Shown: positions 15,217-49,339, numbered from the stretch's first letter. The stretch: 64,000 nucleotides of DNA from Alphaproteobacteria bacterium (GCA_045655105.1 JAZOOQ010000006.1:408-64407), one strand, 5' to 3'. A program made the numbers and translations. Notes: generated by a model not told the origin, from the letters alone.

Positions 15217-15217
15217 T

Positions 15218-15274: not shown

Positions 15275-15320
15275 GCCACAATGGAACGATATGAAGAAAT
15301 ACGCATGTTCAATAAAAAAT

Positions 15321-18287: not shown

Positions 18288-18474
18288 GGTATAACCCTCT
18301 GTAAGTTGATGATTACAAGCTCTTAATATTACCTTATACAGATAATTAATAATCAAGTCAAACATTTGATATTAAAAATACAGCATTTAAATTTTACTCT
18401 CGAACTTGCAAATTAAGGATAAGCATATCTCGTATAACCTTAGAAAACCCTTTGATTGATAGATTCTTTAAACG

Positions 18475-27597: not shown

Positions 27598-28200
27598 CTA
27601 ATTTAAATTTTCTCGTTTAAGAAAGTATCGAAGAGTTGTGCGTTCAACATTAAACTCCTTGGCAATTTTAGTTTTTGAAACACCTTGTTCTAAAAGTTGT
27701 TTAATTTTATTTGCATGGTCTGAAAGTTTTAATTTTTTATTTTTAGATGAAAAGGGGCGCCCTAGTTTTTTTCCGCTGGCTTTTAAGTTTTCTAAGGATG
27801 CCTTTGTTCTTTCAGAAATAAGATTGCGCTCAATTTCAGCAGAAACACCAAATGTAAAAGCAATAACTTTTGATTGTATATCATCTCCTAATCTATATTT
27901 TTCTTTGATTGTCCAAATTTGGCATCCTTTATTTAAACAGTTTTCTAGAATTTTAAAAATTTCTAAAATCGATCGACCAAGACGAGATATTTCGCAAGAA
28001 ATTAAAATATCGCCTGGTTTCATATTAGTAAGAACTTTAAAAAGTTTTCTTTGTGTTAAATGTTTTCTAGAAGAAATGGTTTCTTCCACCCATTGCTGAA
28101 TGTCAATATTATTGTTTTTTGCAAATTTTTGTATTTCATGTTTTTGGTGAGAAACAGTTTGTTTTTCTGATGAAACACGAATATATCCGATAATAGCCAT
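27598..28200 (-). CDS. Small serine recombinase (invertase/resolvase family), copy 2
   Basis: YIRVSSEKQ, GDILISCEISRLGRS, SAEIERNLISERTK, C-terminal HTH. Clear paralogue of the 11665-12273 gene. Confidence 0.9.
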   Translation of the reverse strand: MAIIGYIRVSSEKQTVSHQKHEIQKFAKNNNIDIQQWVEETISSRKHLTQRKLFKVLTNMKPGDILISCEISRLGRSILEIFKILENCLNKGCQIWTIKEKYRLGDDIQSKVIAFTFGVSAEIERNLISERTKASLENLKASGKKLGRPFSSKNKKLKLSDHANKIKQLLEQGVSKTKIAKEFNVERTTLRYFLKRENLN

Positions 28201-28429: not shown

Positions 28430-31273
28430 ATGAAAAAATTATATGCAACACTTTTAACAACAAGTTTCCTTTTTTCTTTAAATACTTATGCAACAACTGT
28501 TTCTTCATTTCAAGGGTTAACAGATGCTTTAGGATCAGCTGATGCAAATGTTGTTTTTGATGCTTCTTCTGTTATAAATGTTGATGGATGGCTGACAGTA
28601 AAAGAAGGTCAATCTGTTGCACTTCAAAATATTGCCTCTTGGACAAACATGAATCAAACTTTTAAAATTTCTAATAATGAATATGTTGCAGGAACAATAC
28701 CAAGCCTTGGAAACAGCAATACATTTGGCATTGGAAAAGAAAGATTAATTATGAATTCAGGTGAGTTGAAAATTAATAGCGTTGTTGTTCAAAATAATGA
28801 CTTGTTAACTTCTTCAAGACCTAATAATCAGTATGCTTTGTGGGGATCTGCATTTATTCAAAATAAAGGGATTATTACAGAAATATCCGATTTGATAGTA
28901 AAAAATAATGATGTTAACACCTTAAAGGGGCATGATTTATGGGGTGGGTTAGTTGGAAATCTTGATGGTGGCCAAATTAAAAGCATTAAAAATACTGTTT
29001 TTGAAAACAATTCATTTTTAACACAACAAAGCTCTCCTCATGGAGCTGTTATTTATAATGGATCAAATACAGCAGGTTCTCCTTCAGTTATTGAACTTAT
29101 TGAAGAAACAGAATTCAAAAATAATCATATGTTTGCTAGCGAGAATAATAGTGGAGGTGGTCACGGTGGCGTTATTGATAACAATCAAAGAGGTGTTGTT
29201 AATAAGATACATAAAACAAAATTTATCAATAACAGCTCACAAAAACCTGGCTCAGAAGCATCAGGACATGCTTCTGGTGGAGCAATAGATAATTATCATA
29301 TTATTAAAGAAATTTCAGAGAGCGAATTTCACGGAAATTTTGTTTTTACTGAATCAAGGGATGCTCTTGTAATGGGTGGGGCAATTAAAAACCTGTATGT
29401 AAGCGCATCTCTAGATGCAGCTGGGCGTATTGATAATATTGTGGATGTAGATTTTATTGGAAATTATGCCAAAAATACTGCGGGCGAAGCCTATGGTGGT
29501 GCATTTGCAACTGGGGATGGGGCTCGTGGAGCAGCAATAACTGAAAAAATGATTAATGTGTTATTCAAAAAAAATTATGCACAAGGAGATGGGCTTGAAG
29601 ATGGTTCTGGTGGTGCATTTGGTGGTGCAATGTATAACACAGGAACAATCAAAACATTAAACGGGAAGTTTATCGAGAACTATGCTATTAGTAAATGTGG
29701 CAAAGCTCAAGGTGGTGCAATTTGGAATAAAGGCACAATTGAAAGCATTAAGGATTCAGAATTTACAGGCAACTATGCAACAGGTGGATCTGAATCATTG
29801 GGTGGTGCAATATATAATGAGGGCACAATTGGATTTGAAGGAACAAATATCTTTAAAGGCAATAAAACAGGCAATAAACTTAATGATATTTATAACACAG
29901 GAACAATCACCGTTTCAGGAGATTTAACGCTTGATGGCGGTATTACTGGAACAGGAGCTGTTACTTTTAAAGACGGCGCTTCTTTAAATGCCACATTAAA
30001 TCAAACAACAATTTTGGCAGATAGTGTTACATTTGAAGGAAATAATAAATTAAGTTTTGTGATCGGTGGAGATATTGAATCAAAAACATATGACTTCATT
30101 GAAGCTTCTTTAACAGGAAGCGAAAATGTTTCAATCAGAGAAAATGCATTATATGATTTATCCTTAACAGATGAAGGTGATATTACTGTTGGTAAAAAAA
30201 GCTCTGATGAAATTCAAAAGACTCTTGAACAAAATATGGATAAAAAATCAGCAGAAATTATCACAGCTGTTTTAAATTCGAAAGGCAGTGAAAAATTAGC
30301 TGAATTATCATCAGAATTTTCAACAATTGTTCAAGAAGGAAGTTTTGAAAAAGCAACAAAAGGGGCCAAAGAATTAGCGCCAACAGATTCAGCCGTTGTT
30401 GGGCAAGTTGCGCAATCAACAAATACATTATTGTTAAATACAATAGGAAATAGAGTTGAAAGCACAGGTCGTTCAGGTGGTGATGCATTTAAAAATTCAA
30501 GCCTTTGGATGAAAGCACTTTATTCTAATGCAGAACAAGAATCTTCCTCTTCAAGTGAAGGGTTTGAAGCAGATACAAAAGGATTTGTATTGGGAGTTGA
30601 TGGCAAAGCAACAGAAGATTTAACAATTGGGGTTGGTTATGCATATACACAAAGCGAAATTGATGCAGGATCAAGAGAAATGGATGTAGATGGCCATAAT
30701 GCTTTTGCTTATGCTCATTATCAACCAAATAAATGGTATGTAAATGGGGTTGTGTCATATGGTCAAAGTAAATATAAAGAAACCAAAACACCACTTGGAA
30801 TGGCTTTAAGAAGCGAATATGATGTTAAAACATATGGTGCAACACTTATGAGTGGATATAACCTTGAAAATGGTATTACTCCAGAAGTTGGACTTCGTTA
30901 TTTAATTGTTGATCAAGAAAGTTATAATGATGGGGTTCAAACAATTGAAACAGGTAAAACAGATTATTTAACGGCAGTTGTTGGAGCTAAGTTTAATGTA
31001 ACCACACAAATTAATGATTGGGTTGTTGAACCAAATGCCAGAATTTATGCCACATATGATTTAATCAGTGATGATACCATTGCAACAGTATCATTCGCAG
31101 AAGGAGCCGGTTCTCAAGTTAAGGGAGAAAGTTTAGATCGTTTTGGAATTGAAACGGGGTTGGGTGTTTCTGCAACACTTGACAGCATTGAGTTGAGTTT
31201 GGATTATTTAGGTGGATTTAAAAAAGATTATCAAAATCACTCTGGTATAATCAAAGCTAAATATCATTTCTAA
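28430..31273 (+). CDS. Autotransporter with Pmp-type (FxxN / GGAI) passenger repeats
   Basis: Signal peptide. At least 8 passenger units of the form F-x-x-N ... GGAIxN (for example FIENYAISKCGKAQGGAIWN, FTGNYATGGSESLGGAIYN). C-terminal beta-barrel domain from about 30500 (SLWMKALYS ...) ending KAKYHF. Confidence 0.85.
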   Translation: MKKLYATLLTTSFLFSLNTYATTVSSFQGLTDALGSADANVVFDASSVINVDGWLTVKEGQSVALQNIASWTNMNQTFKISNNEYVAGTIPSLGNSNTFGIGKERLIMNSGELKINSVVVQNNDLLTSSRPNNQYALWGSAFIQNKGIITEISDLIVKNNDVNTLKGHDLWGGLVGNLDGGQIKSIKNTVFENNSFLTQQSSPHGAVIYNGSNTAGSPSVIELIEETEFKNNHMFASENNSGGGHGGVIDNNQRGVVNKIHKTKFINNSSQKPGSEASGHASGGAIDNYHIIKEISESEFHGNFVFTESRDALVMGGAIKNLYVSASLDAAGRIDNIVDVDFIGNYAKNTAGEAYGGAFATGDGARGAAITEKMINVLFKKNYAQGDGLEDGSGGAFGGAMYNTGTIKTLNGKFIENYAISKCGKAQGGAIWNKGTIESIKDSEFTGNYATGGSESLGGAIYNEGTIGFEGTNIFKGNKTGNKLNDIYNTGTITVSGDLTLDGGITGTGAVTFKDGASLNATLNQTTILADSVTFEGNNKLSFVIGGDIESKTYDFIEASLTGSENVSIRENALYDLSLTDEGDITVGKKSSDEIQKTLEQNMDKKSAEIITAVLNSKGSEKLAELSSEFSTIVQEGSFEKATKGAKELAPTDSAVVGQVAQSTNTLLLNTIGNRVESTGRSGGDAFKNSSLWMKALYSNAEQESSSSSEGFEADTKGFVLGVDGKATEDLTIGVGYAYTQSEIDAGSREMDVDGHNAFAYAHYQPNKWYVNGVVSYGQSKYKETKTPLGMALRSEYDVKTYGATLMSGYNLENGITPEVGLRYLIVDQESYNDGVQTIETGKTDYLTAVVGAKFNVTTQINDWVVEPNARIYATYDLISDDTIATVSFAEGAGSQVKGESLDRFGIETGLGVSATLDSIELSLDYLGGFKKDYQNHSGIIKAKYHF

Positions 31274-32525: not shown

Positions 32526-33515
32526 TTATGTTACTTCTGTAACCGCTCGGATATTTCCATCACGATTAATTTGCACAACGCGTAATTTTTCTTTCATCTC
32601 TCGGTATGTTTTTTCACGATCAGTTGTTGGATAGGAATGCAAAATTCGCCCAATAAACGCTTTATAAGCAGCATCTGGGCTTTCTGCGTGAATTGTTGCA
32701 AAACAGTTTTCATGACCTGATCCCATTAATTCCCATAGGGCCCCAGCATTTGAAGTTGAAATTTCACCGCCAATAATAGCATCTGGAGTAAAACGAACAG
32801 CAAGGTCGATTACTTTTTTATAATCAAAGTTATTTGTTAATTCTGTACGCGGTAAAACAATATGAACACGATTTTTGTGTGGCACAATAAGTTCCCGAGT
32901 ATCTTCAATTGTTAAAATACGTTTATGTGGATCTAAAACTTTAATTAAATTGTTTAAAAACGTTGTTTTACCCGTTGCTGTTGCGCCAGAAATTAAAACA
33001 TGGTCGCCTCTTTTTATTGAAAGCATTAAACGTTCAAAAGGATCATCAGGATCTTCTACTTGTTTTAATCTATTTAGTGGGCGTAATCTTTCTCCAACAC
33101 TAAGACCAAAATCACTCATAGAGATACTTACATCTTCTTTATAAACACGAATCGCCATGGCAATGCCACCAGTTAAGTCATTGTTATCATACATTACATT
33201 TCGACCTGCAATGCCCGTAAAACGATGACCACCAGGAAGTGTGGCATAAACTGTTGGAGTTCCTTGTGTTGGATCAAACGCATAATCATAAGAATTTGCA
33301 ATAATATACATAATATTATTGAGGTATTCACGTGTTAATTTTGGATCTTCATAATAATGCCATGGATGTGCATGTCGTCCGCGTAATCTAAGCCAGATTC
33401 CTCCTGGAGAATCAACAGCAACTTCTTCAACATTATCTTGATTATACCAATAGGATAAGGGTCTTAGAGCTGATTCTAAAACCCGATAGGTATCTGCAAT
33501 AGATAATTCCCCCAT
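32526..33515 (-). CDS. virB11: Type IV secretion ATPase VirB11
   Basis: Walker A GATATGKTT, ILTIEDTRELI, RFTPDAIIGGEIS, His-box ATIHA. Lies directly downstream of virB10. Confidence 0.9.
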   Translation of the reverse strand: MGELSIADTYRVLESALRPLSYWYNQDNVEEVAVDSPGGIWLRLRGRHAHPWHYYEDPKLTREYLNNIMYIIANSYDYAFDPTQGTPTVYATLPGGHRFTGIAGRNVMYDNNDLTGGIAMAIRVYKEDVSISMSDFGLSVGERLRPLNRLKQVEDPDDPFERLMLSIKRGDHVLISGATATGKTTFLNNLIKVLDPHKRILTIEDTRELIVPHKNRVHIVLPRTELTNNFDYKKVIDLAVRFTPDAIIGGEISTSNAGALWELMGSGHENCFATIHAESPDAAYKAFIGRILHSYPTTDREKTYREMKEKLRVVQINRDGNIRAVTEVT

Positions 33516-33529: not shown

Positions 33530-36500
33530 TTAAAATAATCTATCAGACGAACCTGTTTTAGGAAGAACAGGAGTTACCTTTCTTTCTGATATAGGTTGTT
33601 TTTCAACGCTGTCGCCAGTATAAATAGCTTCATTTTGAGATTCATCTGATTCTTCTTCGCTATTATATTTATCTGAAGGTTTATAATATTTGCTATCATC
33701 AACATCAGAAGATTCCTCATCTTCTTCAGACTCTTCAGATTCTTCCTCATCTTCCTCATTTTCTTCATCTGTTGTTTCTTTTTGTGTATTTCTTGTTTCA
33801 ATCCATGAAGATGTGTCTGGTTTTTGAGCTTCTGTTGAAATTTCTTCTGCTTCAGAAATATCATCTTCTTCAGATCTTAACCATAAATCTTCGTTCGGGA
33901 ACACGGTTAAACGTGTGCCTGATGGAACATAAATAACAACAGGAATATTTGCTGAATCTTCAATAAGTTGATCAAAGATTGTTTGCATAGATTCGATAAA
34001 GTTTTCACGAGCATCATTTGCAGCTTCTGTTTTTGATGAAGTGATTGTATTTCCATACATATCTTGATACATATCATCATTTGTTGCCATCATATATGAA
34101 ATAGCTGAAGTGACAACGCTTGTCATAATTGGTTTACCGAATTTTTTAACCAATTCATCATCAAGATAAGCAGCAACACCACCACGGCCTTGAGCATCGC
34201 CTGAAGTTCCTTCAAATGAGAAGGCACCACCATCTGGACGAATAAGTCTTTGCCATGTGATTTCAAGTTTGGCTGCACGTTTGTCATTTCCTTGTTCACC
34301 AGCAAATGTTCCGATTAATCTTGAACCTGCTGGAATGATGATATTTCTACCTTTTTCTGAATAGATATGTCTTTCAACGATAGCTGTAACAGGCATTTCA
34401 GCATATCTTGAATCGATTGATCTTGTTAAGACGGCAGGGATTGCTTTATCTTTTAAGATCATGCGAGACATGTCAACAGGATAAGATGAAACAATTTTGT
34501 TAACACCAATAGATTTCCAGTCAGAATCTGCTTTTTTGCGAGCCATAGCCTTAATTTTAGAATTTGGTGTAATTAAACCTCTTGAACCCATTCCTGCTTT
34601 CATGCTTTCTCTTTTTTGAGAAAGAATTTCTTGCATTTGTTGAATTTGTTCAGGGGTTGGTTTCATCTTTTTGTTCCCAAAGTTCGGACGGATTCTACCA
34701 TGTTCATCACCATCTGGACTTAATGGACGACCATCTAAAGTCATTGGTCTTCCTTCTTGCATGAAACCAACGATTTCATTTTTATCATCTAAAATTGAAC
34801 CATCTGGTGTTACTTGATATAATTTATTACCAAAGGAAATTTTGCGAGAACCTGCTTGACCAGCTCCACCTTGAGCATTTCTTAAAGCTTCTAATTCTTC
34901 TTCTGAAAGAGACTTAATACCGCATTTATCCAAACGCAAATCAATGCCTTTGATTTGACCCATGTTGTTTCCATCTTTATCTTGCAATGTTCCGTTTTCA
35001 TGAATGGTAGCAAAAAGTTCTCCATTTAAACCAATGATAGATCCATTTGGTGTGATAGATGCGATTTTTTCATTTTGAAGATTGAAAACATCGCAACCTG
35101 AAATTTTACCAAAGACGTTTCCATTTGCATCTACAAGTAAACCGCTTTCGATATCGCTTGGAAGTTCTCCATTGTCACCTAATTGACCAATCACGTTACC
35201 ATTTTTATCAACAATTTCACCTGTTGGTAAAACTTGAGCAATGAAGTTTCCTTCGGCATCTTTAATCACCCCATCGGATCCGAAAGTTCCTTTGATATTA
35301 CCATTTTCATCATATAATATCTCTTCATCTCTTGAAACATTGCGGCCAATGATTTCTCCATTTGCGTTGACAACATTTCCATCTGCACGTAATGTGCCGA
35401 TTACTTCACCATTTTTGTTGACTACAGAACCATTTAATTTAACACGACCAATTGGTTTACCATCTTTTCCTAAAACAAGGCCACGTTCATGTGTTGCCCC
35501 AATGATTTCACCTGTTTTATGATCAACAACTGTGCCATCATTTTTGCTACAACCAATATTGATTCCATTGACATCAACAACCGTTGAGTCAGGCATTGTG
35601 CGTCCGATATATTTACCTTCTGGAGACATTACAATACCATTTCTTGTCAAGCGACCAATTTTTTCGCCAGAAGTGTTAACAGCCCACTTATCTGGCAATA
35701 TACGTCCAACAACGGTTCCTTTGGCATCAATTACTTGACCATTAAAGCCTGTTTGTCCAACAACTTTACAATCATTTGTAACTAAAGCAGATGATACCAA
35801 TGCTCCTGTGATTTTATAGGTGCCTTCTTTAACAGTTCCATTAACTGCAATTTTGCCTTTTAATTCACCAGAAGGAGACATGATTTGACCATTATGAATC
35901 AATGTTCCCATAAATGATCCATCTTGAGCAATAGCTGTGTGGAACGGTAAAATTGCGCCTGCTAATGGTTCATCTTTTCCTAAGATTGTTCCGTCATCTA
36001 AAATGCGAAGAGTTTTACTATCTGTGGCATCTAAAATATCACCAGAAAGGGTTGTTCGTCCTAAAACATCACCACGATAGCCAAATGGCAAACCTTGTTG
36101 AACAAGTCCACCTTTTTGAGGCATTGTGTTATATAAAGAACGATCTTGAATATCAGCAACAGATCCATCGCTAAGAGCTCTAGCCGTCATTTGATTATCT
36201 TTACCAATAACTGCACCATCTGCAGCAACTGTTCCAAGGATTTTTGCATCATCATCAACAGCTACACCGAATGGCGCTTTACCACCAGCCCAAAGATTAT
36301 CTTGTGTTAATGCAAAACCAAATGGCATTTGAACAGCAACAGTTTTTTCATCTTGATTCGTTATAGTTGCTGCTGTTTGTGTTTGACCGATTAAAAGACC
36401 TGATTTACCAACAAATGCTGTAACAGGTAAAGTCGTGCCACGAATATTTCCTTTATCATTATAAAGAGCTCTAATACCTGAAGCAGTGGATTCTTTTTTT

Positions 36501-39500
36501 CCTCTTAAGAAAATAGTTCCATTTAAACTTTCGCGACCAACGGTATTTAAAGCATTTGAAACTGCTGGACCTGCGTGTAAGACATTTCCTTGGATTTGTT
36601 TGATTAAATTTGAAGCCAAACCATTTGTCATGATAGAGCCAACAGGTTTTGATCCGCCAATTGTTAAAACACTACCATTTGTTGATACAATACCCATTGT
36701 TTTTGAAGCGCTATTTTCAGCAACAAATAAATCTTTATCAACTAATCTTGCAACAAAGTTCCCATCTTTTGTAATTGTTTCTGGAGCAATAACAAGACCT
36801 TTAATTTTACCTTGCGTATCAATTGCTTCACCATATTCATTAATCAAATATGTTGTTTGATTGTTATCCGTATATCCAACGGAATTTAAAGGAATAAATG
36901 TGCCTGTAATATCACCTTTTGCATTTGCAATACGGTTATCAGATAAAACATGCCCAAGTTGGGTTTTGCCAAGACCAACTCTGCCATCAGAATGAAGAAT
37001 TCCTGCAAATTTGCCAGAGTTATCAACAGCAATACCTTGCGGTAAAACTCTGCCAATTACTTCATCCATGTTGTTATAAATAAAGTCTGAAGCATAAAGA
37101 TATCCAGTATCTTTTTCAGTGCTAATGGTATTGTTAATTGCCATATAGCCAAGTAATTTCCCATTCGATTTAACAGCTAAACCTGTTTTTACAAGATATC
37201 CAATTTGAGTTCCTGCCTTATCAAGAGCAATACCATTTGACATTAATCTTCCAATTGATCTTGCATTTTTACCCAATAAATCAGCATCAAAACTTGTCCA
37301 ACCAATCAGTTCATTTTTTGTGTTAACATAAACACCAAATGGAAGCATTCTGCCGATAACACCTTCTTCGTTAATAACCAGACCAAATGGTGTTGCTTGA
37401 CCAACAATGTTGCCATTTTTATCCAAAATAGAACCTGTTACATTTGGATATCCAATTAATTCTTCTGGTGTAAATGCAACGCTTAAGCGTTTAAATACAC
37501 CACCTATAATTTTTTCATCTTGTGAAACTGCAATGCCATTCGCAAGGATTTTTCCAATAACTGTTTTCTTTAATGATACAACTTCACCTTTTGGTGTGAT
37601 TGATCCGATTTCTTTACCCAATATTGATAAAACCTTACCATGAGGCATTTCAAAACCAATAACTTTTCCATCTTTATCAGTTACTGTTTTGTTAGCTCTA
37701 ATGGCTCCAATGATATCGCCATCTGAATTTTTTAATGTGCCATCTACACTCATCGTGGCAAGATAGTTATTATCTAAATCAAGGAATGCAGTCTTGTCTG
37801 GGATTAAGGTACCAATGATTTGTTGAGTATCACCACTAACAGCCGTTAAATTTGGTAAAACACGAGCAAATCTTTCTCCTTCTTGATTAAGACCAAAACC
37901 AATTTTTGAGTTATAACGACCAAGAATTAAACCATCAGGTGAAACAATAACCCCATCAGGAGGAATCACACCTAAAAATTTTCCATTTGTAGCGGAAACA
38001 ATACCATCTTGATCAATAGTTCCAATTTCATTTCCATTGGCATCATAAACTTTATCACCCATCACAGTCCAACTGGTTGGATTTCCATTTGCATCTAAAA
38101 CAACGCCAGTAGGAGTGCCTGATTGACCATTATCACCAATAACAGTTCCTAAAATTTCTTTACCATCAATAGAAATTACAGATCCGTCTTCTTGAAGGCA
38201 GCCAATAACTTTTCCTTTTAAGTCCATTACTTTGCCGTCTAAGCGAACGCGACCAATCACAACTCCTTCGTTGTTTTTGACAATTCCTTTAATTGCTAAT
38301 GCACCAATAACTTTCCCAGCATTGTCAACAACTGTTTTATCTGGGGTAATACATCCAAAAGGTTCATTATTGGCATCTGTTAAATCGCCACCAAGAGTAA
38401 CAAGTCCTAATAAACGACAGCCATCCGCAATTGCAGATGCTCTTGGAACAACAACACCGATAATTCTATTTTGATCGTTACGGACATAACTATCCGTCAT
38501 GACTTTTCCAACTTGTTCAAGTGAATCATTAATGGCAATTCCGTTTGGGAAAACAGATCCAATTTGTTGACATCCAAATCCAATAACGCGTCCTTTGGGT
38601 AATACTGATCCAACTGTTTTTTTGCCAGCAGTTATTGATCCATCTGGATTAACGCAACCAATAACAGCTCCTTGTGGACCAACAGCTTTTCCTTCGGAGT
38701 TGATAAATCCAATAGGATTGCCTTTTTCATTAATAACAAGACCTAACTGAATAGCGCCACCAATATCTGTTCCTTCAGAATTTATTACACTACCATCAAT
38801 CAATGTTTTTCCAACAGTTTGATTATATGCATCACGCACTTCGCCATTTTGCATGATTTTCCCTGTTAATTGGCAACCTGGTGCAACAGCAACACCTTGA
38901 GGGATTGTACCCCCAATAAGATCATTTGTGTTATTTGTTACCAATCCGTTTGGTTTAACTGTTCCAAGAACGGAGTTTGCAGCATCCATAACAGATCCAT
39001 CAGGAATAATACCCCCGATAACATTACCAGTTAAGTCTGCAACCAAACCCCATGGTCTTAAAACACCCATTACGCGGTTATTTAAATTTGCAACAGCTCC
39101 ATTTGCAAGAGGTTTACCAATAACGGATCCTTTTTCGTTTACAACAGTTCCGTCTTTTAATAATTTACCGATAACATTTCCGGTCATATCCATTACAGAA
39201 ACAATTGGAATAGCTGCACCTAAAACATTTAATTCTGCATCCACAATGGTGTCATCACCTAATAAACGACCCAATTTATCTCCGTTTTCATTAATTACAT
39301 CCCCATTTGGCGCAATTTTACCCATGAGCTCATTTTTAAGGTTAAGAGGTAATTTTTCTGGAGTGGCAATTGCAACGATTTTACCATCTTTGTTAATATA
39401 TAATCCATTTTCAGTTGGTTTAATGACTTCACCATCGATAACGATAGAACCATCTTCCACAATAGGGTGCAACTTTCCATCAAGACCCATGGCGTATTTT

Positions 39501-40132
39501 TGTTCTTGAGCAGCATCATCTTTTGATGCGGTTTCACAAATAACACAATCTTTGGAATCAGTAGATTGAGCTTTTACTTGAACAGTTGTTTTCTTTTCTC
39601 TATCGGAAAAACCAGCAGCGGTTGCAGAATCTTCTTCCCATTGAATGGTTAAAACATTTTGAATTTGTCTTAAAGAAACAGGATTCCACAAAACTTTAAT
39701 TAAACATTCTTGTCCACTTGCTAAAGATTCATTTTCTTTACAAGTTGTTTCCATTGAAAATCCATCTTGTTGATTTTCAAGGAAAGTAGCTCCTTTATAA
39801 AGAACAGAACCATTTTCTGCTGTGAGTTTTATTAAAGCTTCAACTTGAGAACCAATAACAACGTTATTCATATCAATTTGTTCAGGAACAACTTTTAAAG
39901 AGACATCGCCCCTATCAAATCCTTGGAATTGACCTCCTTGAGCATCATTTTTAGTTTCATATTCATCGTCCCAGTCGATATTTTCCGTTGGAGTTTGAAC
40001 AGGCGCTTTTTCAGAAATAAAGGAAAGCGCTACAAAAAATACAATAAGAAGAAATAATCCACCAAACAAAAGTTTTCTGTTACTTTTTTTTACATATTGC
40101 TCACTTGAGCTTAATCCTCTGTTTTCTTTCAT
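33530..40132 (-). CDS. virB10: Giant VirB10-family protein (2,200 aa): TM anchor, beta-sandwich-like module, about 1,500 aa of 17-residue repeats, VirB10/TrbI domain, acidic tail
   Basis: C-terminal VirB10 domain at about nt 33880-34500 (AIPAVLTRSIDS, IIPAGSRLIG, RLIRPDG, DAQGRGGVAAYLDDELVKKFG). N-terminal TM helix LLFGGLFLLIVFFVALSFI. Lies between virB9 and virB11. Confidence 0.85.
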   Translation of the reverse strand: MKENRGLSSSEQYVKKSNRKLLFGGLFLLIVFFVALSFISEKAPVQTPTENIDWDDEYETKNDAQGGQFQGFDRGDVSLKVVPEQIDMNNVVIGSQVEALIKLTAENGSVLYKGATFLENQQDGFSMETTCKENESLASGQECLIKVLWNPVSLRQIQNVLTIQWEEDSATAAGFSDREKKTTVQVKAQSTDSKDCVICETASKDDAAQEQKYAMGLDGKLHPIVEDGSIVIDGEVIKPTENGLYINKDGKIVAIATPEKLPLNLKNELMGKIAPNGDVINENGDKLGRLLGDDTIVDAELNVLGAAIPIVSVMDMTGNVIGKLLKDGTVVNEKGSVIGKPLANGAVANLNNRVMGVLRPWGLVADLTGNVIGGIIPDGSVMDAANSVLGTVKPNGLVTNNTNDLIGGTIPQGVAVAPGCQLTGKIMQNGEVRDAYNQTVGKTLIDGSVINSEGTDIGGAIQLGLVINEKGNPIGFINSEGKAVGPQGAVIGCVNPDGSITAGKKTVGSVLPKGRVIGFGCQQIGSVFPNGIAINDSLEQVGKVMTDSYVRNDQNRIIGVVVPRASAIADGCRLLGLVTLGGDLTDANNEPFGCITPDKTVVDNAGKVIGALAIKGIVKNNEGVVIGRVRLDGKVMDLKGKVIGCLQEDGSVISIDGKEILGTVIGDNGQSGTPTGVVLDANGNPTSWTVMGDKVYDANGNEIGTIDQDGIVSATNGKFLGVIPPDGVIVSPDGLILGRYNSKIGFGLNQEGERFARVLPNLTAVSGDTQQIIGTLIPDKTAFLDLDNNYLATMSVDGTLKNSDGDIIGAIRANKTVTDKDGKVIGFEMPHGKVLSILGKEIGSITPKGEVVSLKKTVIGKILANGIAVSQDEKIIGGVFKRLSVAFTPEELIGYPNVTGSILDKNGNIVGQATPFGLVINEEGVIGRMLPFGVYVNTKNELIGWTSFDADLLGKNARSIGRLMSNGIALDKAGTQIGYLVKTGLAVKSNGKLLGYMAINNTISTEKDTGYLYASDFIYNNMDEVIGRVLPQGIAVDNSGKFAGILHSDGRVGLGKTQLGHVLSDNRIANAKGDITGTFIPLNSVGYTDNNQTTYLINEYGEAIDTQGKIKGLVIAPETITKDGNFVARLVDKDLFVAENSASKTMGIVSTNGSVLTIGGSKPVGSIMTNGLASNLIKQIQGNVLHAGPAVSNALNTVGRESLNGTIFLRGKKESTASGIRALYNDKGNIRGTTLPVTAFVGKSGLLIGQTQTAATITNQDEKTVAVQMPFGFALTQDNLWAGGKAPFGVAVDDDAKILGTVAADGAVIGKDNQMTARALSDGSVADIQDRSLYNTMPQKGGLVQQGLPFGYRGDVLGRTTLSGDILDATDSKTLRILDDGTILGKDEPLAGAILPFHTAIAQDGSFMGTLIHNGQIMSPSGELKGKIAVNGTVKEGTYKITGALVSSALVTNDCKVVGQTGFNGQVIDAKGTVVGRILPDKWAVNTSGEKIGRLTRNGIVMSPEGKYIGRTMPDSTVVDVNGINIGCSKNDGTVVDHKTGEIIGATHERGLVLGKDGKPIGRVKLNGSVVNKNGEVIGTLRADGNVVNANGEIIGRNVSRDEEILYDENGNIKGTFGSDGVIKDAEGNFIAQVLPTGEIVDKNGNVIGQLGDNGELPSDIESGLLVDANGNVFGKISGCDVFNLQNEKIASITPNGSIIGLNGELFATIHENGTLQDKDGNNMGQIKGIDLRLDKCGIKSLSEEELEALRNAQGGAGQAGSRKISFGNKLYQVTPDGSILDDKNEIVGFMQEGRPMTLDGRPLSPDGDEHGRIRPNFGNKKMKPTPEQIQQMQEILSQKRESMKAGMGSRGLITPNSKIKAMARKKADSDWKSIGVNKIVSSYPVDMSRMILKDKAIPAVLTRSIDSRYAEMPVTAIVERHIYSEKGRNIIIPAGSRLIGTFAGEQGNDKRAAKLEITWQRLIRPDGGAFSFEGTSGDAQGRGGVAAYLDDELVKKFGKPIMTSVVTSAISYMMATNDDMYQDMYGNTITSSKTEAANDARENFIESMQTIFDQLIEDSANIPVVIYVPSGTRLTVFPNEDLWLRSEEDDISEAEEISTEAQKPDTSSWIETRNTQKETTDEENEEDEEESEESEEDEESSDVDDSKYYKPSDKYNSEEESDESQNEAIYTGDSVEKQPISERKVTPVLPKTGSSDRLF
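34960..39490 (-). repeat. In-frame tandem array of a degenerate 17-aa (51-nt) coding repeat inside virB10
   Basis: Consecutive units parsed by hand include KLLKDGTVVNEKGSVIG, KPLANGAVANLNNRVMG, VLRPWGLVADLTGNVIG, GIIPDGSVMDAANSVLG and TVKPNGLVTNNTNDLIG. Consensus: x-h-x-P-[DN]-G-x-V-x-[DN]-x-x-G-x-h-I-G. Confidence 0.85.
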
Positions 40133-40187: not shown

Positions 40188-41924
40188 TTATTGAACGCGA
40201 ACAACTGAGCATCCAAATCCACGACGACCCAATCTTTTGCATAATTTATCTGCCAAAGTAATATCTTTAATTGGACCGACGCGTAAGCGGAATAATTCAC
40301 GCATATTGCTGTCTGCTGTTGTATCAACAGAATAATAAGGTTCATAACCGCTTAAAACATCTGCATTCTTATCAAGAATTTTTTCCCAAATTCCTTCAAG
40401 TTCAGTAATATCTGCATGTGTACCAAGTTCAATAGAAATTGTTTCGCTTGTGGCTAAACCGGAATTTCTTTGTGCTGAAATTGGCATTTGACTCATTACA
40501 CCAACAATCCCTGCAGATGCTTTTGGAGAGTTCACAACATTAGCTGGAATTGATTGAATCGGAGCCATGTTTGATGTATATACTGAACTGTTTGGTTGAA
40601 CATATCCCGGCATATAATTTTCAGTATATGTATCATACATTGATTCAACAGGATACATACCGTTTGTTTGTGGCATATATGTGTTTTGTTGATACATATC
40701 CATCATTTGAGGTCTTGGTGCTAATGGACTTTTTGTGATTTGTTTTTCTTCTGAATCAGCACCTAAAGTTGGATCATAAGCCGGAGCTTCTTTACTCATT
40801 ACGCTTGGTCGACCTGTATATGGAGAAACAGTCATATTTTCAGAACCGCTATAATCTGTATATTCAAGACCTGCACTTGGATCTCTTCTAAGTTTTAAAC
40901 AGATAAGTTTTTTACCATTTCTTAAAACCAAATCCCCAATAGCTTCAACAACAATTAAACGGCTATTTGGTCCCGTTGTTCTAAAACCAACAGGAACTTC
41001 TGTTTCTTGAACTAAAAGACTGACAACAGGGCGTTGAGTCATTGTTAAAGCTTTCGGTCCCAAATCAATGTATGTAAAAATATTATCGCGCCATACATTA
41101 TCTGGGGCAATATCCACATCTGATGGATTTGGAATATAAATATCAATATCAAAACGAATGTTTTCTGGATCTACAGGAATGCTTTGCAACCAATTTTTTG
41201 GGCCAGTTGAGGCGGTATTAATACCCAATTGGGGATTTTGACCACCACTTCTGCCAATTGCCCATCCTGGTGCTTTATTGGAGTTTAAAAACCCATTTCC
41301 AACTGCTCTATTTGTTGCACCATTCATACCACCTAAGCGGCCTCCATTTTCAACAGGAGTGTATCGTGGTCCAACTAATACATCAACAACAGATTGAGAA
41401 ATCTTTTCCGCATTATATGTTTCGCTTCTTAAATAGAAAACATATCGGTTACCTGAACGACCAAAAATAATCATATTGCTATCAACACCAATGTATGATG
41501 GGTCAGCATATAAAAGAAGAGAGTTTGGTGCTGCAATTTCACCACCAAAAGATTCTGGAGAACCGATATGAACTTTTTCAATTAACTCCCATGTTGGCAA
41601 GTTAATCAGAGTCATCATTCCTTCTCTTAAACGGATTGGTAAAATAACATCAGGTGACCAAGCATATTTTGAATATCCTGGTTTTGATTGACCTTCCCCT
41701 AAATGAGCCATTGGGTCATTCCATGCTTTTTGTTGCATGCCAAGAGAATGTAAATAATTTGGGTTAACAGATTCGTAATCGCCATTTGTTTGCGCAATAG
41801 CGTCGCTTAAACGTTCACTTTCAGCATCTGTAGGCAACCCCTCTGAATGTGCAACAACAGAAAATAAAACAAAAACAGCAGCTGTTGCCAGCCAACCTTG
41901 TCTGTGAAGTTTGTGTTTGAACAT
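40188..41924 (-). CDS. virB9: VirB9-family protein with Met/Tyr/Pro/Gln-rich linker and C-terminal SPOR domain
   Basis: Signal peptide (AAVFVLFSVVAHS). VirB9-like blocks (RYVFYLRS; NIFTYIDLGP ... PVVSLLV ... LIVVEAIGDLVLRNGKKLICLKLR). C-terminal 83 aa are SPOR-like (FRLRVGPIKDITLADKLCKRLGRRGFGCSVV). ATG 41924 is preceded by GAGGAG. Confidence 0.8.
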   Translation of the reverse strand: MFKHKLHRQGWLATAAVFVLFSVVAHSEGLPTDAESERLSDAIAQTNGDYESVNPNYLHSLGMQQKAWNDPMAHLGEGQSKPGYSKYAWSPDVILPIRLREGMMTLINLPTWELIEKVHIGSPESFGGEIAAPNSLLLYADPSYIGVDSNMIIFGRSGNRYVFYLRSETYNAEKISQSVVDVLVGPRYTPVENGGRLGGMNGATNRAVGNGFLNSNKAPGWAIGRSGGQNPQLGINTASTGPKNWLQSIPVDPENIRFDIDIYIPNPSDVDIAPDNVWRDNIFTYIDLGPKALTMTQRPVVSLLVQETEVPVGFRTTGPNSRLIVVEAIGDLVLRNGKKLICLKLRRDPSAGLEYTDYSGSENMTVSPYTGRPSVMSKEAPAYDPTLGADSEEKQITKSPLAPRPQMMDMYQQNTYMPQTNGMYPVESMYDTYTENYMPGYVQPNSSVYTSNMAPIQSIPANVVNSPKASAGIVGVMSQMPISAQRNSGLATSETISIELGTHADITELEGIWEKILDKNADVLSGYEPYYSVDTTADSNMRELFRLRVGPIKDITLADKLCKRLGRRGFGCSVVRVQ

Positions 41925-42081
41925 TGAATCTCTCCTCTTTATTTTTGTAATATATTTACACAATAAAACAAAAATATTTAAAAAGTCTAGCAAAAAATGA
42001 AAAAAGATGTGTTTTTAATAGAAAAAATTTTTCAAGGTTTTTTTTAGAAGTTTTTTAAGAGGGATTTTTTTGAAAAAATTA

Positions 42082-42780
42082 TTATGAATCAGCTTTTTTT
42101 ATCCCAAGTTGAATAACTGTAAATCCAAGTGGATTTTTTAGTCTTTCTTCCCAAGTTAAACCTTCTCTTGTGGGTCTAAAAGCAACATCCATTGTAACAA
42201 CCCATCTGGATTTTTGAGGTTCACTTGATAAGTGTTTCATTTCTGTAAATTCAACTTCTGTACGCCAAATGTTTTCATTTCTACTTGAGCGATAAGGGTT
42301 AACGACTAAAATTTTAACATTACGGGTCAACCCTTCTTCTTTAGCTTGTTTAATCCAATCTTCTGCATATTCAATAAATTTTGAATAAACGGTGCTTTCG
42401 CTCATCCAGTTAATTTCGCCATCAATCCCAGTGCGTCGTTCAAGTTCTTGAATGTTTGATCCAACGCTAAAATAGGAAAGCAAATACTGTCTTATAAAAG
42501 ATTCAGTCAGTGTTTGCATATTCATTTGGCTGAAGTTTGGGCGAACAACATTAATAACTTGTTCATTCTTATTAAGTGTTGTTAAGAAAAATGGTTGCAC
42601 TCTTACAATAGGCATTAATGAAACAAGAGCGCTAATAAGCATAATTGTTGTTAATGAAGAAACAACTAAAACAAGCGCAAAAGTGCGCGCCATCCAAAGA
42701 TAACGCCTTTCTTTAACGGCTTCTTCGGATAAATCTTGACCTTGTTTCTTTTTAACAGGTATTTGCTCGTTCATTGTCAT
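42082..42780 (-). CDS. virB8: VirB8-family protein (copy b)
   Basis: Short cytoplasmic N-terminus, one TM helix, periplasmic domain ending with the VirB8 signature NPLGFTV. Confidence 0.8.
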   Translation of the reverse strand: MTMNEQIPVKKKQGQDLSEEAVKERRYLWMARTFALVLVVSSLTTIMLISALVSLMPIVRVQPFFLTTLNKNEQVINVVRPNFSQMNMQTLTESFIRQYLLSYFSVGSNIQELERRTGIDGEINWMSESTVYSKFIEYAEDWIKQAKEEGLTRNVKILVVNPYRSSRNENIWRTEVEFTEMKHLSSEPQKSRWVVTMDVAFRPTREGLTWEERLKNPLGFTVIQLGIKKADS

Positions 42781-42798: not shown

Positions 42799-42978
42799 TT
42801 AAGATAACCATTCAGGAAGGGCAGGTGCTTTTTCAAGTTCAATGCATGCACATGGAGATTTTTTAAGTTCAGAATAATCTGGACCAATTCCAACTGGTTC
42901 TTTTTCATAAACACTGCCACAAGCAGCAGCTAAAGCAGCGATACCTAAAACAAATAAAATAACAAAATATTTTTTCAT
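42799..42978 (-). CDS. virB7: VirB7-like small lipoprotein (59 aa), absent from the supplied ORF track
   Basis: Hand translation: MKKYFVILFVLGIAALAAACGSVYEKEPVGIGPDYSELKKSPCACIELEKAPALPEWLS. Lipobox LAAAC. Located between the two virB8 genes, as rvhB7 is in Rickettsiales. Confidence 0.65.
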   Translation of the reverse strand: MKKYFVILFVLGIAALAAACGSVYEKEPVGIGPDYSELKKSPCACIELEKAPALPEWLS

Positions 42979-43066: not shown

Positions 43067-43744
43067 TTATTTTTTAACGGCCTCATCATATTTTTGAATG
43101 TAAAAGCCAAAAGGATTTGAAAAAGTTTGAGAATAAATATGTCTATTTGGATAATGACCAATTGTAAGGGTTGCTACACGTTGTTGTACCAGAGGTTTAA
43201 CAATTGGATCATATGGGTTGTAAAGAAAAACATCAAACTCAACAGTATAGGTATTTCCTAATTTTGAAATATTATTAATTTCAACACTTTGAGTTTCTTT
43301 TCCAGCGGCAATTTTCTTAATTTTTTCTTGAATATTTTTGGCAAATTTAGAGTATACAGTCGGTGAAGACAATCGTCTAATTTCCCCAGAACCACCCCAT
43401 CTAGCAGTCATTTCATCTTTATCAGCAAAATATGAAATTCTTCTATCAATATAATATCTGATTAACATTTCATCTAATAATTCGCGATTGGCTCGATTGC
43501 TATGTGATGTTGAATTCATTAATCTTTTTGCGGGTAATGTGTCAATCTGAATATGATCTAAGGTATGCATAGGGGAGGGTAAAATTTGAGCTACCACTTT
43601 TAGTTTTGGAGCCATTTGAACCAATGTTAAAACAATAAATAAATTGATAGCAATAGAAACAGCGGCTAAAGTCATCCAAAATTTAGCTAAATAAATGGCA
43701 ATTTTTCCACGTTTTTTTTGATCTTTAATAAAATAAGAAATCAC
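43067..43744 (-). CDS. virB8: VirB8-family protein (copy a)
   Basis: One TM helix; C-terminal NPFGFYI signature. GTG start directly abuts the upstream stop (TAAGTG), with GGAGG 8 nt upstream. Confidence 0.75.
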   Translation of the reverse strand: MISYFIKDQKKRGKIAIYLAKFWMTLAAVSIAINLFIVLTLVQMAPKLKVVAQILPSPMHTLDHIQIDTLPAKRLMNSTSHSNRANRELLDEMLIRYYIDRRISYFADKDEMTARWGGSGEIRRLSSPTVYSKFAKNIQEKIKKIAAGKETQSVEINNISKLGNTYTVEFDVFLYNPYDPIVKPLVQQRVATLTIGHYPNRHIYSQTFSNPFGFYIQKYDEAVKK

Positions 43745-45289
43745 TTAAAGACCTCCATTTAAACAGCTTTTGCTAATTTTTTTATTATAATGTTTTTTAA
43801 TATCCACGTTATTCTTTTTTTCAAGTTCTTCATAAAGAGCAATTTCTGCTTTTTTTTGTTTTAAAAGATGATCAATTTCTTGAGCATTAACCACTGTAAA
43901 ATTAACATCTCCATTTATGTCTTTTTCAAGAGCGTTAACATAATTAAAATCTTGATAAGCTTGAGATGAATAGATGATTTGTTTAAGCTGTCTATATTCT
44001 TCTGTATCTTTTGGGATTTTATTTAAAGCATTTAATTGTTCAACATAAGACATTTTTAAATAAAGTTTAAAGGATTCAGTTTTGTTTTTTGTATCAACAA
44101 CATCTGAATGTGTTCTTGTGATTTTTTCACGAACAATTTTAATATTTTTATTTTTAAGATTTAATAATTCTTCTTCTAAAGCCATAATAGAATCAACATT
44201 ATCACCTTTAATTTCATTTGTGACGCCAAGATTTTTTAAACGTTGATTTAATTCGTTTATAGTTGTTTCTTTTTTGTTTGTTATAAGATTTAAAATGTTT
44301 TCGGAGTTTGTTTTTTCTTTTTTGATAGCTTGGTAAACGTTTAACCGATTGTTTTGTTCCTGAATATCTTTATGTCTAGCTTCTTCATTTAAAACAAGTG
44401 TTTTCGAAAAAAATATTTTTGACATTTCTCCATTGGGGTTATATGTATTAAATCCACTTTGAATAAATTCTTTCCATGGTTTTGGCCATTCTGGAAAAAC
44501 GGATTTTGTTTTTGCTGGATCATCATTAAACCACATAATTTCATGAGCTGGAGGTAAAGCTTTTGGTGGTTTAGGAAAGTTTTTTTGACTTTCAGATAAT
44601 CTTTGTGCTTGGTCTGGTGTTAGTGTGGATAAAAATGATTTATATGCCAATTCATTTTTTTCAAAATCATTTTCAGCACTAATTCCTGCAATTCGGCCTG
44701 TTCGTCCTAAAATTTTATTTATGTTCATTAAAAAAGAATTAACTTCTTCTTGGTAAGAATATTTTTGATCTTCCCATAATTCGAAAGACTTACCTTCTTT
44801 TACTTGACCATATTTTGATGGATTAGCATAAACGTCTGTTAAAATTTCTCTGCCCAAATACCAGTTAGCAAAAAGTTCTGCCTGAGCATCTTCTCCTGTG
44901 CTTGTTTTTTTCGGAACACTGTTTAAAATATCAACTGTTAATTTTAATTCTTGTTCATCATAAGCCTGAGTGATATTTTGCCAAGCAGCTTTTGGATTTT
45001 CATAAACATCAGCAAGTAAATTAATATTGCATTCTTCCATCGCGTTATATTTTTGGTTAATTAAATCAACGCGCAGTTTTTCATGCTCTTCTTCTTTATA
45101 TTTTTCTTTTAATTTTTTAAGTTTGAGTTGCATAGCATGAAGTTGCTCAAGATAGATAATTTCAGTTGTGTAATCATCTGTTTCAATCACTGCTTGAGAT
45201 TCATTTTCAACTGGCGCATTTGCTTGAGTTAAACTGATAAATGAAAAAAATGAAATACCTGTTAATGCAAATAATAGAAAATGTTTCAT
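43745..45289 (-). CDS. Secreted coiled-coil protein P6 (514 aa), T4SS-linked, unknown function
   Basis: Signal peptide MKHFLLFALTGISFFSFISLTQA. Lys/Glu-rich heptad-like segments. Its stop abuts the virB8a start. Confidence 0.6.
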   Translation of the reverse strand: MKHFLLFALTGISFFSFISLTQANAPVENESQAVIETDDYTTEIIYLEQLHAMQLKLKKLKEKYKEEEHEKLRVDLINQKYNAMEECNINLLADVYENPKAAWQNITQAYDEQELKLTVDILNSVPKKTSTGEDAQAELFANWYLGREILTDVYANPSKYGQVKEGKSFELWEDQKYSYQEEVNSFLMNINKILGRTGRIAGISAENDFEKNELAYKSFLSTLTPDQAQRLSESQKNFPKPPKALPPAHEIMWFNDDPAKTKSVFPEWPKPWKEFIQSGFNTYNPNGEMSKIFFSKTLVLNEEARHKDIQEQNNRLNVYQAIKKEKTNSENILNLITNKKETTINELNQRLKNLGVTNEIKGDNVDSIMALEEELLNLKNKNIKIVREKITRTHSDVVDTKNKTESFKLYLKMSYVEQLNALNKIPKDTEEYRQLKQIIYSSQAYQDFNYVNALEKDINGDVNFTVVNAQEIDHLLKQKKAEIALYEELEKKNNVDIKKHYNKKISKSCLNGGL

Positions 45290-45291
45290 TA

Positions 45292-46071
45292 TTAATTTTC
45301 CTCCGGCAACTCTTCTTCAGGGTTCCAATATGTTTTATGTCTTTTTGCGGTTGCAAGTCCAAGTAGCGCATTATATTGTAATTGAGCGGCTCTTAATTGT
45401 TTTTGAATCATAAGTAATTTAATCCAAGCAATTTTTGCAGCAGCAGTTCTTAATAAGAGCTTTGGTTTGTTTTCGTTGTTTTCTAAAGAATTTTGATTTG
45501 ACGCTTGTCTTGATGAGTTATCGATATCCTTTTCCATTTCATCAATGATATCAAATATTTTTTTGGTTTGATGTTTTAAAACCAATATTCTTGCCATCAT
45601 CTGAATATTGGCTTGTTGACGAATATATTGTCTTTTTTTAACAAAATTATAATCACCTTCATGATCAGCAAAAGGCATATCAGCATAAATTTTCATATTG
45701 CTTTTCATAAGGGTTTCAACTTTTGATGAGGCAGGATCTGGATATTCAACAACAATATCTTTTGGCGGTTCTTTTCCTTCAACAAAATCGCCAGGATTTG
45801 CAGAATCGTTATTTCCTAAAACCGAAGATGGATTTGGAAGGTCAGAGATTGTTTGATTGACAAGAGCATTTCCTTGTTCGGTTATATAATTAAATTGTTT
45901 GTTAGCTTCAGCTGCGCCTCTTGAAATCGTATCAGCAGTGCTTCCTGGTTCTAAAACTGGACCACCAACACCAGCAATCCAACATGGATCACAAGGCATG
46001 CATACTGAGGAATATGCTGACAGAGGAGTTGTGGTCAAAAATATGAAAAGAATATAAGGTGTTATTTTCAT
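45292..46071 (-). CDS. Secreted protein P5 (259 aa), T4SS-linked, unknown function
   Basis: Signal peptide, Cys-rich mature N-terminus (SVCMPCDPCW), helical C-terminal half. Its start overlaps the P4 stop (ATGA). Confidence 0.6.
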   Translation of the reverse strand: MKITPYILFIFLTTTPLSAYSSVCMPCDPCWIAGVGGPVLEPGSTADTISRGAAEANKQFNYITEQGNALVNQTISDLPNPSSVLGNNDSANPGDFVEGKEPPKDIVVEYPDPASSKVETLMKSNMKIYADMPFADHEGDYNFVKKRQYIRQQANIQMMARILVLKHQTKKIFDIIDEMEKDIDNSSRQASNQNSLENNENKPKLLLRTAAAKIAWIKLLMIQKQLRAAQLQYNALLGLATAKRHKTYWNPEEELPEEN

Positions 46072-46787: not shown

Positions 46788-46798
46788 TTTTTTCTCCT

Positions 46799-47557: not shown

Positions 47558-47566
47558 GTTATCCTC

Positions 47567-49287: not shown

Positions 49288-49339
49288 TAGGCCCCCCATG
49301 CATATGTTTTATTGATTAGTATATATATTCTATTTTACA

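Follow-up and report, generated by a model that had tools for sequence, protein, structure and literature searches.

A long array of individualised 17-residue repeats in the middle of a giant VirB10 homologue from gut-associated Alphaproteobacteria

A stretch of 64,000 nucleotides from an Alphaproteobacteria bacterium (GCA_045655105.1 JAZOOQ010000006.1:408-64407; the whole stretch is referred to here as the window) encodes a giant homologue of VirB10, a subunit of type IV secretion systems (T4SS). The middle of this protein consists of a contiguous array of 17-residue units. The array had been noticed in a sequence-only reading of the window, which missed the context: it is not a free-standing protein but the presumably periplasmic middle of a VirB10/TrbI protein that is about five times oversized and is encoded in a T4SS gene cluster. 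VirB10 is the one T4SS subunit that extends across both membranes, and it gates the outer-membrane pore. Canonical members have ~380-480 amino acids (aa) and a short proline-rich periplasmic segment. To our knowledge, only two lineages with a repeat-enlarged VirB10 were known before, those of CagY and DotG; both have variable repeats, about whose structure and role there is still debate. The window protein would add a third and independent case, built from a different fold, and an array of this type in a VirB10 has apparently not been described before. At slightly better than even odds (a probability of roughly 0.55), the array serves as a fixed-length, rigid, disulfide-stapled periplasmic scaffold that couples the inner-membrane motor to the outer-membrane pore.

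Domain organization of the giant VirB10

The protein is encoded by a single open reading frame (ORF) and consists of a membrane anchor, a PapD-like domain, the 88-unit array, a linker of ~160 aa, the TrbI barrel and an acidic tail of ~110 aa (Table 1). In its C-terminal domain, its gene context and its topology it is a VirB10. The TrbI model (PF03743) matches residues 1892-2085 with 115.1 bits against a cut-off of 35, and covers profile positions 2-188 of 188. The solved structures with sequence similarity to the protein are VirB10-family barrels only, all of them aligning at residues ~1885-2086; they include ComB10 (2bhv, 1.4e-15), Xanthomonas VirB10 (6gyb), CagY (8cb2) and TrwE (7o3j). The chains of canonical VirB10-family members in the PDB are 395-406 aa long. 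The short proline-rich periplasmic linker of an ordinary VirB10 was not found in the window protein, which carries instead the PapD-like domain and 1,506 residues of repeats.

Table 1. Features of the giant virB10 gene and of the neighbouring T4SS genes (positions counted from the first letter of the window)
Feature	Position	Strand	Residues	Remarks
virB11, T2SSE-family ATPase	32526..33515	minus		Pfam T2SSE 68 bits; directly downstream of virB10
Giant virB10, complete gene	33530..40132	minus	2,200 aa + stop	Single ORF
Acidic low-complexity tail	33533..33874	minus	2087-2200	Ends ...RLF
TrbI / VirB10 C-terminal barrel	33875..34480	minus	1885-2086	Pfam PF03743
Linker, array to barrel	34481..34957	minus	1726-1884	
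Repeat array, 88 predicted beta-hairpin units	34958..39475	minus	220-1725	Periodicity, parse, profile, Pfam, AlphaFold2
Putative staples, second site	35549..35770	minus	Cys1455-Cys1528	73 apart
Putative staples, first cluster	38198..38875	minus	Cys420-Cys493, Cys521-Cys594, Cys572-Cys645	Each 73 apart
PapD-like / ASH / MSP-type Ig-like beta-sandwich	39533..39910	minus	~75-200	AlphaFold2 pLDDT ~90
Short cytoplasmic N-terminus and single membrane anchor	40013..40132	minus	1-40	...KKSNRK-LLFGGLFLLIVFFVALSFIS-EK, read from sequence
virB9 (CagX) with C-terminal SPOR	40188..41993	minus		CagX 46.5 bits, SPOR 29 bits against a cut-off of 21
virB8 paralogue, proximal	42082..42780	minus		Pfam VirB8 52.8 bits
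Lipoprotein, VirB7-like	42799..42978	minus	59 aa	Lipobox L-A-A-A-C; by position and size only
virB8 paralogue, distal	43067..43744	minus		Pfam VirB8 38.6 bits

By inspection, residues 15-40 comprise a basic stretch followed by a hydrophobic segment of 20 residues. This anchor is conserved in the orthologues, and all proteins of the giant class (as distinguished below from a short class) have a hydrophobic run of 18-25 residues. The array is placed in the periplasm because the topology of VirB10 fixes both of its ends there, and because its paired cysteines fit an oxidising compartment. The PapD-like domain matches 6fvi, 2e6j and 1m1s in Foldseek, with template modelling (TM) scores of 0.55-0.73 normalised to the target. 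It contains four cysteines (131, 143 and C196-x-x-C199) that are 97-100% conserved and might form either two disulfides or a metal site. Modules of the same type also occur in tandem in unrelated giant proteins such as P0188 (4,358 aa, 34 matched stretches), beside which P0191 is listed as a further bearer.

Among the orthologues, indels are concentrated mainly in the linker that joins the array to the barrel. This linker contains Cys1737 (the partner of Cys1680), one or two outlying repeat units, and a basic stretch at residues ~1830-1850 that looks helical by eye. At the other end of the barrel, the acidic tail closes with an aromatic residue (LF, YF, MF or IF) in almost all VirB10 orthologues, which recalls the C-terminal signal of outer-membrane proteins.

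Periodicity and family of the repeat

Autocorrelation of residues 215-1725 (BLOSUM62, 300 shuffles) peaks at lag 17 with z = 20.5, and harmonics are present at 34, 51, 68, 85, 102 and 119. The strongest lag away from multiples of 17 (+/-1) reaches only z = 4.1. In sliding segments of 102 aa, lag 17 is the best almost everywhere between residues ~205 and ~1580, with a weaker signal at ~1020-1220. HMMER searches with 17-residue units under-counted the array (~50 partial hits), and a wrap-around profile parser was used instead. It resolves residues 220-1725 into 88 contiguous units, with the one or two outlying units at residues 1773-1808. The most degenerate part comprises units ~48-63 (residues ~996-1266). 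The sequence-only reading had placed a 17-residue periodicity at 34960-39490, here residues 215-1725 of the one ORF, and had estimated 85-90 units, a range that includes the number counted. Both of the example units that it quoted are found, at residues 628-644 and 594-610, and its consensus agrees with the per-position profile, x-h-h-P(38%)-[DN](55%)-G(71%)-x-V/I-h-[DN](65%)-x-[DN]-G(67%)-x-h-I/L-G(86%). The three glycines of the profile are G17 (86%), G6 (71%) and G13 (67%).

At the DNA level, Tandem Repeats Finder detects no 51-nt tandem array, and direct repeats inside the array do not exceed 56 nt, with identities of 60-86%, so that the units are indeed degenerate at the nucleotide level, as had been claimed. 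Higher-order periodicity was also sought. The autocorrelation has no extra signal at lag 68 or 85, and the sequence has no super-period of 68 or 85 residues; the similarity between units rises slightly, and not significantly, at offsets of 3, 6 and 9.

The block had been described as belonging to no family that could be named with confidence. This did not hold, since Bflower_2, one of the two Pfam beta-flower models (PF21785/PF21784, clan CL0395), matches nine stretches with 211.8 bits against a cut-off of 38. Bflower is also matched (67.4 bits against 25), and so is DUF3659 (PF12396; 40.5 bits against 24.8), the family whose likeness had been suggested in the sequence-only reading. In a scan by segments, Bflower_2 is found in nine of ten sub-segments of the array, the exception being residues 1166-1335 in the degenerate middle, and the best DUF3659 stretch lies at residues 1773-1809 in the linker (E = 2.8e-10). 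The semi-conserved [DNEQ]-x-x-G motif of beta-flowers, which sits at the tip of the hairpin (PMC10584680), is represented in the units by D or N at position 10 (65%) and G at position 13 (67%). None of the three matched families has a known function, and the profile search thus returned no characterised family with a role already attached to it. The Pfam CW_binding repeat families and the RHS/YD repeat (PF05593) have no match in the window protein at E <= 0.01; precomputed RHS/YD matches are present in a few relatives only.

Conserved cysteines and predicted structure

All 14 cysteines of the protein are 70-100% conserved among the orthologues. Four pairs within the array are separated by exactly 73 residues (Table 1), a spacing that joins position 14 of unit i with position 1 of unit i+5; the first cysteine is thereby at the beginning of a long strand and the second halfway along the long strand that lies four hairpins further on. 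In 73 full-length proteins a Cys-Cys distance of 73 is seen 227 times, whereas in random controls no single distance is seen more than 15 times. The partners are lost only together in the alignments (420 with 493, 521 with 594, 1455 with 1528, and 1680 with 1737); 6 of the 37 sequences aligned, for example, have G/R or G/H in place of Cys1455 and Cys1528. The conservation fractions agree pair by pair, and one 73-residue pair (606/679) is kept in the short class.

On this sequence evidence we read the 73-residue pairs as disulfide staples. A flat hairpin ribbon is then excluded, because residues 4.3 units apart must touch and a ribbon would put them ~40 A apart. Because 521-594 interleaves with 572-645, it is not possible for each of these two pairs to close a five-unit domain of its own. 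The pairs look like turn-to-turn staples of one continuous stack, which would have ~20 turns (1,506 / 73).

AlphaFold2 predictions support the earlier suggestion of stacked beta-hairpins or a beta-solenoid. A model of residues 60-792, made with an alignment of database matches, has a mean predicted local distance difference test score (pLDDT) of 70 and a predicted TM score (pTM) of 0.46, and its strands alternate between 5 and 3 residues with a period of 17. A model restricted to the array (residues 306-660; 21 units, 355 aa) reaches a mean pLDDT of 89.3 and a pTM of 0.75. The strand pattern fits hairpins, and because a pTM of 0.75 corresponds to a confident relative placement of all units, the 21 units are predicted to form a single rigid body. 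Neither in the PDB nor in the viral library does Foldseek find a global counterpart of this model (all TM <= 0.16). Local likeness is confined to hairpin solenoids and shells, namely the combined repetitive oligopeptides (CROPs) of TcsL and TcdA, Rhs/YD repeats (TM ~0.1), teneurins, CbpF and MORN repeats.

The same data bear on a different arrangement, in which the array would be a flexible string of ~18 independent closed beta-flowers of four or five petals, acting as a tether or a multivalent docking platform. The Bflower_2 (5-fold) and Bflower (4-fold) models each match stretches of ~75-86 aa along the array, and the fold was first described as a closed shallow barrel (PMC10584680). However, neither linkers nor regular indel hot-spots recur every four to five units, no super-period of the corresponding length is present, the interleaved cysteine pairs are incompatible with separate, non-overlapping domains, and the pTM over 21 units argues for a fixed geometry between units. 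A string of this kind is considered quite unlikely.

Distribution and truncated database entries

A genome scan limited to one genome per species gave 80 loci. In 72 of these VirB10 is encoded by an uninterrupted ORF of 1,273-2,683 aa, which exceeds 2,000 aa in 60, and the genomes with an intact ORF range in GC content from 35 to 63%. The titles of the loci are almost all those of uncultured (Alpha)proteobacteria and, where a source is named, it is the gut or rumen of sheep, roe deer, rabbit, yak, buffalo or human. A few are filed under other genus names ('Acetobacter sp. CAG:977', Holdemanella, Limosilactobacillus). The closest relatives, L008 and L003, have barrels 99.5% and 98.6% identical to that of the window protein. 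An exhaustive representative library adds ~20 clusters (at 50% identity) of 1,930-2,406 aa that align from residue 1. The names given to relatives by NCBI are 'TrbI/VirB10 family protein', 'DUF3659 domain-containing protein' and 'hypothetical protein'.

A search with the TrbI part had returned relatives of only 240-680 aa, those of 550-680 aa with a single 'flower'. These were rejected as genuine short proteins, the entries being cut by contig ends, an N-gap or a frameshift. In L001 (4384-12007) an ORF of 1,895 aa with the same anchor, PapD-like domain and array runs into an N-gap of the scaffold and goes on as a '668-aa' protein; in L083 (4710-11473) a '490-aa' protein follows a 1,764-aa gene with an overlap of 4 nt, indicating a frameshift split. 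The array of L001 is also overlaid by spurious gene calls on the opposite strand, as are those of high-GC relatives. Since public protein sets hold mostly truncated copies, surveys of domain architecture will under-count giant VirB10s, and automated surveys will have missed the giant virB10.

The prevalence of 240-680-aa pieces in public sets, together with the split genes of L001 and L083, could be taken to mean that the long ORF itself is a product of annotation or assembly, or a decaying gene. The 72 independent genomes with one uninterrupted ORF across the whole range of GC content, the strong purifying selection described below and the high AlphaFold2 confidence all speak against this. 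The probability of an artefact is negligible, and the intact ORFs and purifying selection refute it.

The short class comprises 12 loci with proteins of 1,273-1,886 aa, most of which have neither the anchor nor a PapD-like domain. In six members inspected by sequence (1,472-1,886 aa; L074, L076, L080, L061, L079 and L051) a signal peptide is followed by the array and then by TrbI. The signal peptide looks cleavable, ending in ...VASA before QEITAIDFNG, and the array comes directly after it. L043 (1,273 aa), also of the short class, has kept the N-terminal anchor sequence.

Conservation of the units

Global alignment of the window protein to 16 orthologues shows that the array is 0.36-0.98 identical in register, and that identity falls to 0.13-0.20 when the sequences are shifted by one to three whole units. 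Gaps are mostly of 1-15 residues, the only large insertion (326 aa) being in L006, and no whole-unit indels occur in 15 of the 16. The collapse of in-register identity on a shift and the mostly small gaps show that each unit is individualised and has its orthologue at the same position in other species, with a conserved number of units. The ratio dN/dS over the array is 0.034 against L008, 0.059 against L003 and 0.107 against L004. These values are similar to those of the PapD-like domain, looser than those of the barrel (0.004-0.05) and far tighter than those of the acidic tail (0.15-0.43). Throughout the clade the array is conserved at the level of its single units, and the purifying selection on it is strong. 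The sequence-only reading had called it old and maintained and not the result of recent slippage, a description with which the positional orthology, dN/dS of 0.03-0.06 relative to L008 and L003 and the lack of DNA repeats are in accord.

A few lineages (L001, L021 and L045) have gained near-identical modules at the array's C-terminal end or close to it. L001 carries near-identical repeats of ~51 aa at ~9300-10400, which broke the assembly. L021 and L045 carry modules of ~79 aa (VirB10 residues ~1720-2070), each with its own cysteine pair; L021 has five, and the cysteines of each are 22 residues apart. These local expansions, along with the extra 326 aa of L006, would be expected if the array were a surface-exposed, recombining variable region for host interaction or immune evasion. 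The repeats of CagY and DotG vary by recombination and are proposed to be exposed to the host (PMC5954226; PMC6761968), and the organisms that carry the array live in animal guts. However, the window array has no DNA repeats that could recombine, the number and identity of its units are conserved, and dN/dS is 0.03-0.06. Both of its ends are tethered, which places the region in the periplasm, and the paired cysteines are conserved. Neither the DNA-level repeats nor the variation in unit number of the CagY type was found in the window array. A variable surface region is therefore very improbable, and for the lineage of the window it is already largely refuted.

Gene cluster and surroundings

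The T4SS genes are all on the minus strand in the order virB8, virB7-like, virB8, virB9, virB10, virB11. The rvh islet of Rickettsia typhi has the order rvhB8-II, rvhB7, rvhB8-I, rvhB9-II, rvhB10, rvhB11 and (rvhD4) (PMC4676284), and the order in the window equals this, minus virD4. virB11 has the same position, and the cluster the same synteny, in L001, L002 and L083. The VirB9 homologue has 601 aa, about twice the usual size, and ends in a SPOR peptidoglycan-binding domain; the VirB9 of L001 also has a C-terminal extension (512 aa), whose sequence is similar by eye. The 59-aa lipoprotein has no family match, and a gene of 58-59 aa occupies its place in L001 and L083.

The remainder of the window contains housekeeping genes, including rho, sucCD, ileS, the RNase E gene, mipZ, htpG, lptD, surA and folD, and a gene for a Xer-type integrase. 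As the cluster is flanked by chromosomal housekeeping genes, it is not on a plasmid. Directly upstream of it are six consecutive genes on the minus strand (43745-49299) encoding proteins of 514, 259, 239, 252, 257 and 319 aa. All have N-termini resembling signal peptides, several are rich in charged Lys/Glu stretches, and they are not paralogues of one another. They match no Pfam or NCBIfam family and have no T4SS-related match. These genes are possibly unrecognised parts of the machine or its substrates.

Several further features of the window lie outside the cluster. A single uninterrupted ORF of 1,090 aa (51382-54654, minus strand) contains a complete LptF/LptG permease domain (residues 7-347), LptD_N (409-454) and the outer-membrane barrel of LptD (649-1022), with surA following as usual. 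It may be a genuine inner-to-outer-membrane fusion for lipopolysaccharide transport, in which the LptD signal peptide could act as a seventh helix, or it may result from a lost stop codon. Amid the housekeeping genes, at 11665-18365 and 27598-28200, a 1,014-aa fusion enzyme for restriction-modification of the MmeI type and two genes for serine resolvases hint at a small mobile or variable island. An autotransporter of 947 aa is encoded at 28430-31273.

Proposed role of the array

As a scaffold, the array would replace the short proline-rich periplasmic segment of an ordinary VirB10. Its hairpins would stack into a single rigid rod or coil, with the chain back on the same side every ~4.3 units over the ~20 turns and with successive turns covalently stapled by disulfides. 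In the outer-membrane core complex VirB10 is present in 14 or 16 copies together with VirB7 and VirB9, as given in a table of a review (PMC12624023). With 14-16 copies, a very large periplasmic scaffold of fixed size could be built, such as a ring, a cage or a cylinder wall around the secretion channel, and the assembled arrays would add more than 2 MDa of ordered periplasmic material. Such a scaffold would have a parallel in the CagY and DotG repeat regions but would be static, neither recombining nor variable.

Several observations weigh against a scaffold of this kind. Because the short class starts with a signal peptide and has no anchor, bridging of the membranes is not the universal role of the array. 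The AlphaFold2 model of residues 60-792 is low in confidence beyond unit ~22, and the length of the rod could plausibly lie anywhere from ~10 nm to ~90 nm. In a covariation test for a stacking offset, the correlation of changes between unit i and unit i+k, pooled for k = 0-10 and with cysteines excluded, is at the level of noise (maximum r ~0.1 at every k). The NCBIfam model T4SS_VirB10 scores 114.5 bits, below its equivalog cut-off of 220 bits, and the NCBIfam VirB9 model scores 29 bits, also below its equivalog cut-off; since both the TrbI and the VirB9 domains fall below these cut-offs, the system is divergent. Finally, genes for VirB2-B6 and VirD4 are absent from the 64-kb window, and there is no virD4 after virB11. 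In Rickettsiales, the remaining T4SS genes are scattered over separate islets (PMC4676284).

An unlikely alternative is that the array is a peptidoglycan- or glycan-binding hairpin solenoid, similar to CROPs or to choline- or glucan-binding repeats, which would anchor the machine in the sacculus. The CROPs of TcsL and TcdA and the repeats of CbpF are the best local structural matches, some relatives among the beta-flowers carry the annotation 'cell wall-binding', and the adjacent VirB9 has its SPOR domain. The short class, being without an anchor, would also need another periplasmic partner. On the other hand, the protein has no CW_binding match at the threshold given above, and all TM scores are <= 0.16; the aromatic ligand-binding residues typical of such repeats are outside the unit consensus, and individualised units fit unique protein contacts better than a repetitive ligand. 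The scaffold and glycan binding are not mutually exclusive.

A broader proposal built on the scaffold is put forward only tentatively. An order-level lineage of uncultured gut and rumen Alphaproteobacteria may build a new class of T4SS with 14-16 stapled rods of ~1,500 residues each, amounting to more than 2 MDa and with a fold that has never been solved by experiment. The number of turns would then act as a ruler or as a mechanical transmission, and the short class would be an outer-membrane-only variant.

The beta-flower/DUF3659 repeat was recognised as a fold in 2023 and has no known function, and the VirB10 array is its first clear cellular context. A literature search found nothing linking VirB10 to this repeat, and nothing on the T4SS or other secretion systems of this gut clade (RF32 included), whose conserved chromosomal T4SS is essentially unstudied. 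Because the array is static, individualised and apparently stapled, it should be a far better target for structure determination. The array, whose geometry and role are inferred, is also of real interest for the structural biology of T4SS.

Comparison with known systems

The closest counterparts of the protein apart from the array are P-type subunits (RvhB10, VirB10, TrwE and TraF), with which it shares the C-terminal domain, the bitopic topology, the neighbouring genes and the rvh gene order. Compared with a canonical VirB10 it is longer by ~1,700 residues, which make up the PapD-like domain and the array; it also has an acidic tail, and in the window virB11 is not followed by virD4.

The repeat itself is most closely related to the beta-flowers, which were described as single closed shallow barrels of ~96 residues that often bear a lipoprotein signal and end in a helix (Durairaj et al. 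2023; PMC10584680). These barrels have 8, 10 or 12 strands (4-, 5- or 6-fold; PMC10584680). In contrast, the 88 units of the window protein are continuous, without breaks or helices, have presumed disulfides between turns, and lie inside a subunit of a secretion system. DUF3659 occurs in proteins of fungi, one of which is LdrD of lipid droplets. CROPs, choline-binding repeats and Rhs/YD shells are also made of beta-hairpin repeats of ~17-21 residues that build extended solenoids or shells. However, the array has no sequence-family match to them, its TM scores do not exceed 0.16, and its superhelical period is different (with putative staples every 73 residues).

Like the window protein, CagY of the Helicobacter pylori Cag T4SS (~1,900 aa) is homologous to VirB10 and carries a very large block of repeats on the N-terminal side of a conserved TrbI-type domain, and its barrel is homologous to that of the window protein (matches to PDB 8cb2 and 9vgf). 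Its repeats are not known to be 17-residue hairpins. They are described as existing at the DNA level, recombining and changing function between strains (PMC5954226). The window array differs in having no DNA repeats, a fixed number of units and strong purifying selection.

DotG/IcmE, of the type IVB systems of Legionella and Coxiella, is likewise a VirB10 homologue anchored in the inner membrane and enlarged by central repeats. These have been proposed to form a periplasmic channel or cylinder (PMC6761968). The repeats are pentapeptides that often recombine, and their number can differ even between members of one species (PMC6761968). The window protein has instead a period of 17, not 5, a beta-flower repeat, a static array, and a P-type, rvh-like cluster with VirB8, VirB9 and VirB11 as neighbours. 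By analogy, the window VirB10 would work like the repeat-expanded VirB10s of the CagY and DotG lineages, yet it belongs to neither kind.

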